Shown piece after piece: positions 13,809 to 17,644 of a stretch of 64,000 nucleotides of DNA. The stretch comes from Candidatus Saccharimonadota bacterium (GTDB lineage: Bacteria; Patescibacteriota; Saccharimonadia; Saccharimonadales; Saccharimonadaceae): contig JAFQYO010000011.1 of assembly GCA_017406405.1 (NCBI GenBank), forward strand, positions 35,435 to 99,434, given 5' to 3'. The notes under the pieces are model-generated. The model did no database searches. It was given only the letters and a program-made list of their open reading frames with translations, and had not been told where the DNA came from. The stretch's first letter is position 1, and every line of letters begins with the position of its first letter. The position numbers and the translations under genes were made by a program.

Positions 13809-15320
13809 ATGACAACATTATCTGATTATCGAAACGAACGTTTAAGAAAACTCGACGAAATAAAATCCCTCGGAATAAATCCCTACCCCGCGAAATCCCG
13901 TCGCGACACAAAAATCTCCGACGTCGTCGAAAAATTCGATTCCTTAAACGGAAAGACCGCGACCGTTGCCGGCCGTATCGTCGCAATTCGTTCCTTCGGT
14001 AAACTCGCCTTCATAAAAATCCGCGACAATTCCGGCGAAGTTCAGATTTTCATGCAGTCTGAAGAACCCTCTAAATCCTCCGAAAAACTGTTCAATACAA
14101 AACGCCTAAAGCTCCTTGATTCTGGCGATTTTATCGAAGCGACCGGTCTCGTCGGAAAATCCTCAACTGGAGAAATCTCTATCTTCTCAAACGCCGTCCG
14201 TCTGCTCGGAAAAGCTCTTCGTCCTCTCCCTGGTCGCGACGGTTTTTCGAACAAAGAAGAACGCTATCGCCGTCGTTACGTCGATATGAACGTAAACCCG
14301 GAAGTCCGCGAACGTCTTATTCGCCGCTCTAAATTCTGGCAAGCGACTCGCGATTTTATGAACTCTCACGGTTTCGTCGAAATAAACACCCCCGTTCTCG
14401 AACACACGACCGGCGGCGCCGACGCGACCCCGTTCGAGACGCATATGTCTGCTCTTGACGAAGATTTTTACCTCCGCATTTCTCACGAACTCCCCTTAAA
14501 ACGCCTTCTCGGCGGCGGTTTCGAAAAAGTCTATGATATCGGCCCCCGTTTCCGAAACGAAGGCGTCGATGACGAACACCTCCCGGAGCATATCGCGTTC
14601 GAGGCATACTCCGCGTACGAAGATTACGAAGACGGTATGAATCTTTACGAAGAAATGATAAAACATGTCGCAAAAGAAACCTGGGGGGCCTTAAAATTCA
14701 ACGTCTCCGGTTTCGAAATCGACCTCGGAAACGGCGGAAAGCCCTGGCCAAGAATAAAATACGCTGACCTCCTAAAAGAAAAATACAACATCGACGTCTT
14801 TAACCCCGACCGCGAAGAACTGAAGCGTATCCTCCTCGAAGAATTCAAAAAGTCCGAGGATAAAAACGACCGCTCCGCAAAGAAATCTCTCGACCATACC
14901 CTCGAAACCGCCTCGACTGAACGCCTTATTGACCATGTCTGGAAACTAATCAGAAAAACCTCCGCCGGGCCTTTCTGGCTAATTGAAGAACCTCTTTCGC
15001 TCTCACCTCTCGCAAAAGTTGTCGAAGAAAACCCGCTCGTGACTCAACGTTTCCACCCCATCATCGCCGGAACAGAAATGGGGAACGGCTATTCCGAGCT
15101 TAATGACCCCCTCGACCAACTCGCCCGTTTTAAAGAACAACAAGCCCTCCGCGACGCAGGCGATTCCGAAGCCCAAATGCTCGACCTCGATTTCGTCGAG
15201 ATGCTTGAATACGGAATGCCTCCCGCTTGCGGCTGGGGAAATAGTGAACGGAATTTTTGGATTCTTGAAGGCGTCTCAGGGCGCGAAGCCGTCCCCTTCC
15301 CAATCATCAAATCCCGCTAG
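13809..15320 (+). CDS. lysS: Lysine--tRNA ligase (class II)
   Basis: OB domain, YRRRYVD, GGADATPF, FRNEG, YGMPP. Confidence 0.98.
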   Translation: MTTLSDYRNERLRKLDEIKSLGINPYPAKSRRDTKISDVVEKFDSLNGKTATVAGRIVAIRSFGKLAFIKIRDNSGEVQIFMQSEEPSKSSEKLFNTKRLKLLDSGDFIEATGLVGKSSTGEISIFSNAVRLLGKALRPLPGRDGFSNKEERYRRRYVDMNVNPEVRERLIRRSKFWQATRDFMNSHGFVEINTPVLEHTTGGADATPFETHMSALDEDFYLRISHELPLKRLLGGGFEKVYDIGPRFRNEGVDDEHLPEHIAFEAYSAYEDYEDGMNLYEEMIKHVAKETWGALKFNVSGFEIDLGNGGKPWPRIKYADLLKEKYNIDVFNPDREELKRILLEEFKKSEDKNDRSAKKSLDHTLETASTERLIDHVWKLIRKTSAGPFWLIEEPLSLSPLAKVVEENPLVTQRFHPIIAGTEMGNGYSELNDPLDQLARFKEQQALRDAGDSEAQMLDLDFVEMLEYGMPPACGWGNSERNFWILEGVSGREAVPFPIIKSR

Positions 15321-15327
15321 TCCTCCA

Positions 15328-15539
15328 CCCGCGACTTCGGCCTCCTCAGCGCTCCATTATCATATGTGAGGAGTGGCCTCTATTACTGGTATTCTGCAGA
15401 GCCTAGCCATCGAGACTCAAATAGTCGCTATTGGACACTTCGCTCTCTTGATACCACAAGCTCAAACACTTCATATTCCCTCTCTTCACGCTTAGCTCCT
15501 CAGTACTACGGTTATCGTGGAGGAGGATTTGCGACGCTC
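15328..15539 (+). other. Cassette U1 (divergent), CLec/FISUMP-like C-terminal fragment without start codon
   Basis: RDFGLLSAPLSYVRSGLYYWYSAEPSHRDSNSRYWTLRS...PQYYGYRGGGFATL; stop-free. Confidence 0.8.
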
Positions 15540-15541
15540 TT

Positions 15542-15753
15542 CCCGCGACTTCGGCCTCCTCAGCGCCCCATTATCGTATGTGAGGAGTGGCAACTACAGC
15601 TGGAGTACCACAAACCTTAATAATAGAAGTTCACGCGGCTACTGCTGGTCATCTCGCTCCGACAACACTGAACACTCCAGCTATCTAACCTTCAACCCAT
15701 CGAACCTACTTCCTCGTTACAATGACTTTCGCGGACTCGGGTTTGCGGTGCGT
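15542..15753 (+). other. Cassette U2 (divergent)
   Basis: RDFGLLSAPLSYVRSGNYSWSTTNLNNRSSRGYCWSSRS...YLTFNPSNLLPRYNDFRGLGFAVR. Confidence 0.85.
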
Positions 15754-15754
15754 T

Positions 15755-15966
15755 CCCGCGACTTCGGCCTTCTCAGCTCCCCATTATCGTATGTGAGAAG
15801 CGGCTACTACGACTGGTACTCTACGGGGCTTAGCTATAGAGGTTCGTACGGCTGCTATTGGTCGCTTCGTTCCGCCAATACTACGGCCTCCTACTACCTG
15901 CGCTTCAACTCATCGTACTTGTACCCTCAGTACGGCGACCGTCGCGGAAACGGGTTTGCGGTGCGC
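15755..15966 (+). other. Cassette U3 (intact VR-like)
   Basis: RDFGLLSSPLSYVRSGYYDWYSTGLSYRGSYGCYWSLRSANTTASYYLRFNSSYLYPQYGDRRGNGFAVR. Confidence 0.9.
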
Positions 15967-16022
15967 AAAAAACTCCTCACCTCCCCAAACCCTCAGCCGT
16001 CTCAACTCTCAAACTCCCTCCA

Positions 16023-16234
16023 CCCGCGACTTCGGCCTCCTCAGCGCCCCATTATCGTATGTGGGGAGTGGCACCTACCACTGGGGCTCTACGGGGCTTA
16101 ACAGCAGAGGTTCGAACGGCTACTATTGGTCGCTTCGTTCCTACAGTAGTACGTACTCTGACTTCCTGAACTTCAACTCGTCGGCCTTCTACCCTCAGGG
16201 CAGCAACAATCGTGGCTACGGGTTTGCGGTGCGA
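16023..16234 (+). other. Cassette U4 (intact VR-like)
   Basis: RDFGLLSAPLSYVGSGTYHWGSTGLNSRGSNGYYWSLRSYSSTYSDFLNFNSSAFYPQGSNNRGYGFAVR. Confidence 0.9.
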
Positions 16235-16245
16235 CACAAGAACCA

Positions 16246-16457
16246 CCCGCGACTACGGCCTTCTTAGCGCCCCATTATCGTATATGAGAAGCGGCGATTA
16301 TAATCAGTCATCTGCAACACCTAGCTATAGAAGTTCACATGGCTATTATTGGACATCTCGTTCTCGTGATGTTGCATATCCATATAATTTAACCTTGCAT
16401 ACGTCATACTTAATTCCTCAGAGTTACAACTATTGCGGAACCGGCTTTGCGGTGTAT
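16246..16457 (+). other. Cassette U5 (divergent)
   Basis: RDYGLLSAPLSYMRSGDYNQSSATPSYRSSHGYYWTSRS...PQSYNYCGTGFAVY. Confidence 0.8.
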
Positions 16458-16458
16458 T

Positions 16459-16670
16459 CCCGCGACTTCGGCCTTCTCAGCTCCCCATTATCGTATGTGA
16501 GGAGTGGAGATTATGCCTGGGACTCTACGGGGCTTGTCAACAGAGGTTCGCGCGGCTACTATTGGTCGCTTCGTTCCGGCAATGCTACGAGCTCCAACGG
16601 CCTGTACTTCTACTCATCAGCCTTGGGCCCTCAGTATAGCAGCGATCGCGGCTACGGGTTTGCGGTGCAT
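16459..16670 (+). other. Cassette U6 (intact VR-like)
   Basis: RDFGLLSSPLSYVRSGDYAWDSTGLVNRGSRGYYWSLRSGNATSSNGLYFYSSALGPQYSSDRGYGFAVH. Confidence 0.9.
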
Positions 16671-16732
16671 AAAATCTCAAAGCCTAAACCTCCCTTTACA
16701 TTTCGCTTAAGCTTATATATAATATATTATAT

Positions 16733-17644
16733 ATGTCAAACAAAGTTATGATTGTTGGAACCGGGAACGTTGGCGCCTCTGTTGCCTTCTCGCTTATAAA
16801 TCAGCGGACCGCCGTAAACGAACTTGTCCTTGTCGACATCGACACGAACGACGCCGAAGGCGAAGCTATGGATCTTCGCGATGCTCTCGCTGTCGCTCCG
16901 AGCTTTTTAAAAATCAAAGCCGGAAGCTATAAAGACGCGAAGTCGTGCGACATTATCGTCATCACCGCCGGCACAAACCAAAAACCTGGCGAAACCCGCC
17001 TCAATTTATTAAAGAAAAACTCTGCGATTTTCCGCCCAATGATAAAAGGAATCATGCGAAACGGCTTTCATGGTATTTTTCTCGTCGTCACAAACCCGAT
17101 GGACGTTTTGACTTTCCTAACCTGGAAATATTCCGGTCTCCCTTCTGACCATATTCTCGGCTCCGGAACCGTCCTCGATTCCGCTCGCCTCCGTCTCCGT
17201 CTTTCCGAAAAACTAAACTTAAACCCGAAATCGATTCACGCTTTCCAAATCGCCGAACATGGCGACTCCGAATTTGCGCTCTGGTCCTCAGCAAACGTCT
17301 CTGGTGCCCCGATTTCTAGCTTCCTCTCAAAACCTGCTCTCGCCGAAATTGAAGATTACGCCCGAAACGAAGCTTACGAAATTATAAACAAAAAGGGCGC
17401 GACCTATTATGGAATCGGCGTCTGCGTAGCCCATATCATCCAAGCCGTTCTGAACGACGAACGTCGCATCCTTTCCGTTTCCTCTTATGACGACTGTGCC
17501 GGAGTTTTTGCCGGCTTCCCAACCGTCGTCGGTCGTCGCGGCGCGATTAAACGCCTCGACCTCGAATTGTCCGAAGAAGAAGGAATAAAATACCAAAAAT
17601 CCATAAACGCCTTGAAATCCGCCATAAAATCCGTTCGTTCGTGA
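16733..17644 (+). CDS. ldh: L-lactate dehydrogenase
   Basis: VGTGNVG, ITAG..QKPGETRLNL, TNPMD, GSGTVLDSARL, EHGDS, KGATYYGIG. Confidence 0.92.
   Translation: MSNKVMIVGTGNVGASVAFSLINQRTAVNELVLVDIDTNDAEGEAMDLRDALAVAPSFLKIKAGSYKDAKSCDIIVITAGTNQKPGETRLNLLKKNSAIFRPMIKGIMRNGFHGIFLVVTNPMDVLTFLTWKYSGLPSDHILGSGTVLDSARLRLRLSEKLNLNPKSIHAFQIAEHGDSEFALWSSANVSGAPISSFLSKPALAEIEDYARNEAYEIINKKGATYYGIGVCVAHIIQAVLNDERRILSVSSYDDCAGVFAGFPTVVGRRGAIKRLDLELSEEEGIKYQKSINALKSAIKSVRS

Follow-up and report, generated by a model that had tools for sequence, protein, structure and literature searches.

The 64,000-nt stretch of DNA analyzed here (the window) belongs to a 0.70-Mb Candidatus Nanosyncoccus (Saccharibacteria) genome in 20 contigs (G000; its contigs are labeled C plus a number below), and the relatives of its lysS gene are Candidatus Saccharibacteria and Candidatus Nanosyncoccus, mostly from goat, sheep and yak gut. 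Between lysS and ldh the window contains six head-to-tail units of ~213 bp each, at 15328–16667. It is well supported that these units, like others elsewhere in the genome, are orphan, frozen copies of a protein tip written by a diversity-generating retroelement (DGR), with a conserved header that is kept as it lies mostly outside the template repeat (TR). All parts of a DGR, namely a reverse transcriptase (RT), the TR, live variable regions (VRs) and a full-length target gene, are present in this genome. The units probably derive from the gene for a 1031-aa secreted FISUMP/C-type-lectin-like surface protein, being DNA copies of its variable tip (the last ~70 codons), which the DGR would actively rewrite. 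Sequence comparisons tilt the balance slightly toward a further role of the orphans as recombination partners, or donor cassettes, for the DGR target.

The retroelement and its orphan copies

Thirty copies of the unit are present genome-wide: one TR, three live VRs and 26 orphans. The TR is the AAC-rich copy at C4:946-1120, and its homology to the units begins at TATGTGAGGAGTGGC, nt 36 of the header. The live VRs lie at contig ends (C4:123-334, C8:48-259 and C14:97364-97575) and differ from the TR at 0/121 non-adenine and 16–20/56 adenine sites, which is the relationship of TR to VR in a DGR. They continue at the 3' end with CGT-TGC-GTA-TCG-CAG-TAG (R-C-V-S-Q-stop) and ~50 nt more in common with the TR, a region resembling an initiation of mutagenic homing (IMH) site. 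A 74-nt 3' flank is identical in the TR and the three live VRs and is otherwise found only at one single orphan, with 90% identity. The RT is a 372-aa open reading frame (ORF) at C14:38072-39187 with an RVT_1 match (E 1e-12) and the motifs IGNLSSQ and YVDD, read by eye; its assignment to the DGR type comes from RVT_1 and these motifs, not from a DGR-specific profile, and its matches to the NCBIfam group II, retron and Drt families all fall far below the cut-offs. No TR lies within 9 kb of the RT, the two being on different contigs, and the Avd family PF05635 was not found in the genome; a 264-aa ORF directly precedes the RT. The RT adjoins neither a TR nor a VR, and its 5' neighbors are this 264-aa ORF, of unknown family, and a CYTH-domain ORF.

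The 1031-aa target gene was reconstructed through a contig from another sample that joins the C9 end to the C4 start. Its protein has an N-terminal membrane/signal segment and a weak C-terminal Fib_succ_major match (residues 885–1029), and the gene ends in the TR-adjacent VR. A unit corresponds to only the C-terminal half of the lectin-like domain, and Pfam searches with the unit ORFs return only a Fib_succ_major hint below threshold. Gene fragments also occur at two more contig ends, each preceded by an A/T-rich stretch and cut ~50 codons before the header; the other two live VRs most likely join these 5'-truncated fragments. Six contig ends break in the target-gene family (C8 end, C16 start, C9 end, C4 start, C8 start and C14 end), three of them gene bodies with an identical ~115–124 nt before the header and three of them VR-plus-flank ends. 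Two of the bodies are ~50 codons long and lie behind A/T-rich, promoter-like sequence, so truncated fragments may contain two of the DGR-active VRs. C4 also holds, between the VR and the TR, a second, gutted template-like copy (C4:574-749), in which a ~80-nt leader, 86% like the TR leader, passes directly into CTTTGCGGTG and a 75-nt 3' flank, the whole TR body being missing.

Comparisons between samples distinguish the orphans from the live VRs. Three other assemblies, produced by two pipelines, contain the 1.4-kb window array with 100% identity, and unitigs from three runs cover it without a difference, at a depth equal to that of the neighboring genes; Logan contigs on the window show the presence and sameness of the array, rare variants being invisible to contigs. 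The orphan pair between tsf and rplF is likewise 100% and 99.94% identical in other samples. Sample-to-sample differences in the TR-adjacent live VR number 30 and 26, and all but one in each case (29 and 25) fall in TR-adenine columns; the live locus adjoining a DUF5674 gene differs between samples too, with 0–1 non-adenine mismatches. The orphans are not DGR targets; lacking the 3' flank, they are no longer rewritten. In sample ERZ27256797 (L166 versus L074), the DUF5674-adjacent VR is the one that is TR-adjacent in the genome of the window, which suggests either whole-VR swaps between live loci through their shared 125-nt and 74-nt flanks or an assembly ambiguity.

The orphans form five arrays (the window array, C14:26362-27751, C14:54129-55546, C17:21281-22447 and C8:32881-33320) and two single copies on C4, about 5.5 kb of DNA in the 0.70-Mb genome. 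All 26 lack a gene body, start and promoter, and all but one single copy lack the 74-nt flank. They differ from the TR at 1–45 non-adenine sites (at least three in all but one), and each has its own adenine-site pattern, indicating that a VR state produced by the DGR was the source of each. The window units, with 5–45 non-adenine mismatches and no 74-nt flank, are not active VRs; like silent cassettes, they copy the variable part of an expressed gene in truncated form, with neither promoter nor start. Some orphans have a common 5' adenine-site pattern and diverge farther 3', nearly exclusively at adenine sites. For C14:27078 and C14:55122, the shared 5' block contains no non-adenine difference, and outside it 20/39 adenine and 2/102 non-adenine sites differ, a pattern that fits partial rewriting from the 3' end between two snapshots of one VR. 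If so, the arrays would hold successive VR states. Adenine-site barcodes shared between the three live VRs of this genome and its orphans are limited to chance-level runs of 4 mutated sites, and no age order, such as a CRISPR-like gradient, is seen along the arrays.

Each unit consists of a conserved ~50-nt header, a variable core and the end CGCGG-NNN-GGGTTTGCG, the header following the pattern CCCGCGACT[T/A]CGG ... GAGGAGTGGC. Of the header, only the final 15 nt fall within the TR; the 35 nt before them belong to the target gene, as exemplified at 15328..15377 (+ strand). Four to five header adenines escape mutagenesis because they lie outside the TR, and no special mechanism is needed. The three TR adenines within the header are changed in 1/78 orphan cases and 0/9 live cases; over the 26 orphans, core adenines are changed in 553/1296 cases (43%), core non-adenine sites in 13% and header sites in 5–7%. 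This sparing fits a 5' homology anchor for the integration of complementary DNA (cDNA), or selection on Y-V-R-S-G. As an anchor, the last 15 nt of the header would be a segment in which changes are almost never transferred or tolerated. The only common A/T difference in the first 35 nt of the header is TTC versus TAC, a Phe/Tyr polymorphism.

A first-pass annotation of the window had given the header eight adenines, with one adenine substitution among the units. The single change, AGG>GGG in U4, is indeed the only A-to-N change relative to the window consensus, but the adenines number 6–10 per unit and seven in that consensus. The same annotation had held that the units carry target-gene sequence upstream of the mutagenized zone and are not raw cDNA. 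Aligning units to TR and VR, the check it had proposed, places the start of TR homology at header nt 36, so that 35 nt of header precede the TR; the refuting case, a TR that covers the entire header, does not apply, and this boundary is evidence for both statements.

At the 5' side the boundary is sharp in every orphan, with homology from about 5 nt (CTCC[A/T/G]) before CCCGCGAC. At the 3' side, identity had been described as ending at GCGGTG, which holds in the window (homology stops 0–3 nt past it in 5/6 units, U1 reading GCGACG) but not genome-wide, where the unit junctions are ragged and range over 7–62 nt. The window units do end before the expected IMH-type region, as had been proposed, since they lack the 74-nt flank. 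The Cys codon and stop are missing from them as well; elsewhere, seven units keep 8–13 nt more, CGTTGCGTATCGC, so that the Cys codon and the first part of the 3' flank are retained. The view that fixed ends serve homology-driven exchange survives in part, with the exchange supported by mosaic headers and a 119+5-nt tract and the uniform ends not confirmed. The proposal of a dedicated capture step, which had been drawn from precise ends, is not supported, given the ragged 3' ends and the absence of a recombinase gene near any array. Junction types recur between arrays, which shows block duplication.

Probable exchange through the header

Several observations support an exchange of DNA through the header. 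In old units the header is much better preserved than the core: non-adenine differences in U2 amount to 0/42 in the header versus 27/88 in the core, and in U5 to 5/42 versus 38/88. Header haplotypes are mosaic, all combinations of the polymorphic sites being present, and the Phe variant occurs in 5/6 window units versus 3/23 elsewhere, irrespective of unit age. At the live loci, header haplotypes vary between samples although the flanks hardly differ. In one sample the VR body is that of the genome of the window and the header differs from it at 3 sites, and another carries an orphan-type header (T at -1) at the second live locus.

A longer tract is found in sample ERZ28018966. Upstream, its intact 1031-aa gene matches at 100% identity for 1917 nt, a single mismatch occurs downstream, and for 124 bases (119 nt and the 5 nt before them) its VR is the same as orphan C8:32881. 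Four variants of the header fall within this tract, along with six mutated adenine sites and a non-adenine G>A, and the tract ends in the adenine-free block TATTGGTCGCTTCGTTCC; the 3' half of the VR is fresh, with 0 non-adenine mismatches. The orphan itself is unchanged in other samples. Donation by the frozen orphan appears favored over an old VR state retained in both places, because the TR of ERZ28018966 already has G at the G>A site and because the other live VRs at hand have at most one non-adenine mismatch over their full length.

RecA is present in the genome. It is plausible that RecA-type homologous recombination acts at the 50-nt header and at internal adenine-free blocks, both between orphans and between orphans and live genes. 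Such exchange would homogenize the header and could bring stored tips, together with framework variants that the TR cannot encode, into the expressed gene, and the DGR would then re-mutagenize the recipient gene from its 3' end. A more elaborate proposal, which we consider doubtful, is a two-layer system in which the DGR writes tips, a DNA-level step archives VR states and header recombination returns them. The archived copies would be cut ~5 nt before the header, without the homing flank, and placed just behind housekeeping genes. If true, an obligate epibiont would possess a heritable archive of past binding specificities that is immune to rewriting. Site-specific cassettes of the integron or shufflon type were considered and rejected, as there is no adjacent dedicated recombinase with defined sites; tyrosine recombinases occur only at C4:50.9 kb and C17:83.1 kb and one serine recombinase at C12:5.3 kb, all far from the arrays.

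The array between lysS and ldh

The array lies downstream of lysS (lysyl-tRNA synthetase, 13809..15320, + strand; identified from its ORF and the Pfam families of its protein), beginning 8 nt past the stop codon. Tandem Repeats Finder detected no array because the units are too diverged; a direct repeat search with alignment recovered six units starting at 15328, 15542, 15755, 16023, 16246 and 16459 (spacing 214, 213, 268, 223 and 213). All are on the + strand, and each is open in its own frame, the frames of U1 to U6 being 0, 1, 1, 2, 0 and 0. U1 (15328..15536, frame 0) is an old, diverged orphan with 35/121 non-adenine differences from the TR and the tail GCGACG, and U2 (15542..15750, frame 1) is a diverged orphan with 27/121, its header at 0/42. 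U3 (15755..15963, frame 1) is young, with 5/121 non-adenine differences and 25/56 adenine sites changed. It is followed by a 59-nt junction (15964..16022, + strand) made up of CGC and a 55-nt Ser/Pro/Thr-type linker remnant, which shifts the frame by +1; this junction type recurs in the array at C14:26362-27751. U4 (16023..16231, frame 2) is also young, with 5/121 non-adenine differences, and carries the sole header A>G. The most diverged orphan is U5 (16246..16454, frame 0), with 45/121 non-adenine differences and a header at 5/42 non-adenine differences from the consensus, and the last unit, U6 (16459..16667, frame 0), is again young (7/121 non-adenine differences, 28/56 adenine sites changed). 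A tandem-repeat protein gene was rejected as a candidate on account of these frames and the lack of a start.

No start codon, ribosome-binding site or signal peptide is present at the window array, no terminator-like site lies between the lysS stop (15320) and the array, and no Rfam family was found in 14800–17200. There is no convincing promoter match 5' of the array; the only strong match in 15000–17000 is that of ldh, a promoter-like site with 11/12 consensus matches at 16695..16723 (+ strand). The ldh/mdh-type dehydrogenase gene itself, identified from its ORF and Pfam, occupies 16733..17644 on the + strand.

In related species the typical lysS–ldh spacing is about 50–80 nt. Among the best 80 lysS loci, ldh lies within roughly 110 nt of lysS in about 20, and units directly follow lysS in only 3, which indicates that the arrays are insertions. 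At window position 15311, a contig in three runs leaves lysS into the hairpin-like sequence GACCGCATTTGCGGTC instead of the array, and probably represents a co-resident relative with an empty, ancestral lysS–ldh gap. Both the window array and the set between tsf and rplF (C8:32881-33320) start 8–10 nt past a housekeeping stop codon (lysS and tsf, respectively). Both are preceded by a short pyrimidine tract, and such a tract behind a housekeeping stop may be a preferred insertion context.

Neither the header DNA nor the header peptide was found outside this genome in GTDB representatives, and only profile searches reach relatives. A unit profile matches 104/120 other genus genomes sampled, part of which may reflect ordinary VR-bearing genes; many of these genomes have 25 to at least 49 matches, and most of those listed are in short open frames. 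In G046, two units occupy the same lysS–ldh gap in opposite orientation, match the TR of their own species and extend some 30–50 nt upstream of the TR homology. Another genome, G066 (L053, C7:15000-28000), contains 25 units in 10 kb in alternating orientation. One unit subfamily there is preceded by a conserved ~40-nt element containing ATGAATGTAGGA, and some G066 units may be small expressed genes or invertible pairs.

Alternative explanations and known systems

Several points weigh against the orphans as donors. The tract in ERZ28018966 could be an old VR state that this strain retained and that was copied earlier into the orphan; it also comes from one MEGAHIT contig of one sample, in repeats that invite assembly chimeras, and look-up found no second sample with the exact chimeric 1031-aa protein. 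The three live VRs of the genome carry no imported non-adenine variant, and no window unit was found in a live locus. The window units keep only about 15–24 nt of 3' homology, short for RecA, and no recombinase gene was found near any array. Finally, changes private to single units (19 synonymous to 43 nonsynonymous) reveal no purifying selection on the cassettes. A serious rival, which we regard as quite possible, is that the units are passive fossils, VR fragments spread by unequal crossing-over and illegitimate recombination and decaying neutrally, so that header conservation and rare exchange would be side effects of the sole long identical stretch. The neutral look of the private changes suits this explanation, as do the unordered ages within arrays, the ragged 3' ends, the absence of a dedicated enzyme gene nearby and an ancestral lysS–ldh gap that is empty in most relatives. 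It accounts less readily for the persistence of about 5.5 kb in so small a genome, for profile matches in 104/120 sampled genus genomes (although many may be VR-bearing genes), for units in the lysS–ldh gap of another species that match that species' own TR, and for an orphan tract in the intact expressed gene of ERZ28018966. Moreover, no stop occurs in any of the 29 units, every indel is a multiple of three, and under the observed mutation spectrum the chance that the ten most diverged units would all stay open by neutral decay is about 10^-7. Non-adenine changes are 241 synonymous to 108 nonsynonymous (146 to 203 expected), and variants in at least two units are 47 to 25, counts for which the units do not form independent samples and in which adenine mutagenesis from an older TR may account for some of the private changes in old units. 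Selection acting on the cassettes was rejected once shared and private variants were separated; the bias is confined to shared variants, and the constraint is thus inherited from the evolving TR/VR lineage. As an example of such inheritance, 23 units share ACT at a position that is now ACC in the TR and in the live VRs.

Translation of the array, whether into small proteins or, with frameshifting, into a tandem-repeat protein, is very improbable. Each unit is open in its own frame, U2 and U3 as well as U5 and U6 are mutually in frame, and some G066 units follow a conserved ATG context; yet the frames run 0, 1, 1, 2, 0, 0 across junctions of 214, 268 and 223 nt, the array starts 8 nt past the lysS stop without a start, ribosome-binding site, signal peptide or promoter, a unit comprises the C-terminal half of the lectin-like domain only, and private changes are unconstrained. 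Slightly less probable still is an origin of the units as concatenated DGR cDNA, or a role as additional RT templates. Adenine-specific variation and head-to-tail order would be expected of either, but the first 35 nt of every unit are missing from the TR and the adenines there are not mutagenized; the units are also adenine-depleted and without the 74-nt flank that recognition by the RT would need. The collapse of a hypervariable population into a false tandem array, suggested by the several contigs of this genome that break at these repeats, has a negligible probability given that three other samples independently yielded the identical 1.4-kb array by two pipelines and that unitigs of three runs cover it at flank depth with no difference.

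DGRs are thought to act alone, one template driving endless rewriting with no memory. Here, the DGR target of a 0.7-Mb epibiont is accompanied by dozens of protected old variants that have tracts in common with a live gene. Should the exchange prove real and recurrent, ultra-small host-dependent bacteria would combine hypermutation with a cassette store, could return to earlier specificities and could vary framework positions out of the reach of the template. Remote DGR targets are documented (PMC5758913), and the DGR surveys that could be searched define such targets by A-only differences; surveys that count only A-only VRs would then miss most of the system. The units also form a natural time series with which the evolution of the TR and the activity of the DGR might be dated.

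The system resembles cellular DGRs such as those of the Treponema denticola TvpA family, Legionella LdtA and the Patescibacteria-restricted clade 2 (Roux et al. 2021, PMC8144416) in its RT with DGR motifs, in one AAC-rich TR that serves several VRs in trans with adenine-only differences, in a VR at the C-terminus of a lectin-like domain, and in a 3' flank common to TR and VR. Unlike those, it has 26 beheaded, flank-less copies that are not rewritten beside three live VRs, placed in tandem arrays between housekeeping genes and with tracts in common with live loci; in addition, no Avd (PF05635) was found here, and the RT and TR are on separate contigs. Orphan, flank-less copies are not described in the DGR literature that could be searched, which does not include the candidate-phyla-radiation survey by Paul et al. 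2017.

Antigenic variation by gene conversion from silent cassettes operates in Neisseria pilE/pilS, in Borrelia vlsE/vls and with the msp2 pseudogenes of Anaplasma. The orphan arrays share with these cassettes the organization as promoterless, 5'-truncated, head-to-tail copies of the variable part of a surface gene, a conserved 5' block beside a variable core, donors that stay fixed as the expression site changes, and a segmental tract common to cassette and expressed gene. They differ in that the 3' conserved block is very short, and further in that the stored variation is written by a retroelement and the expression site is also rewritten by cDNA.

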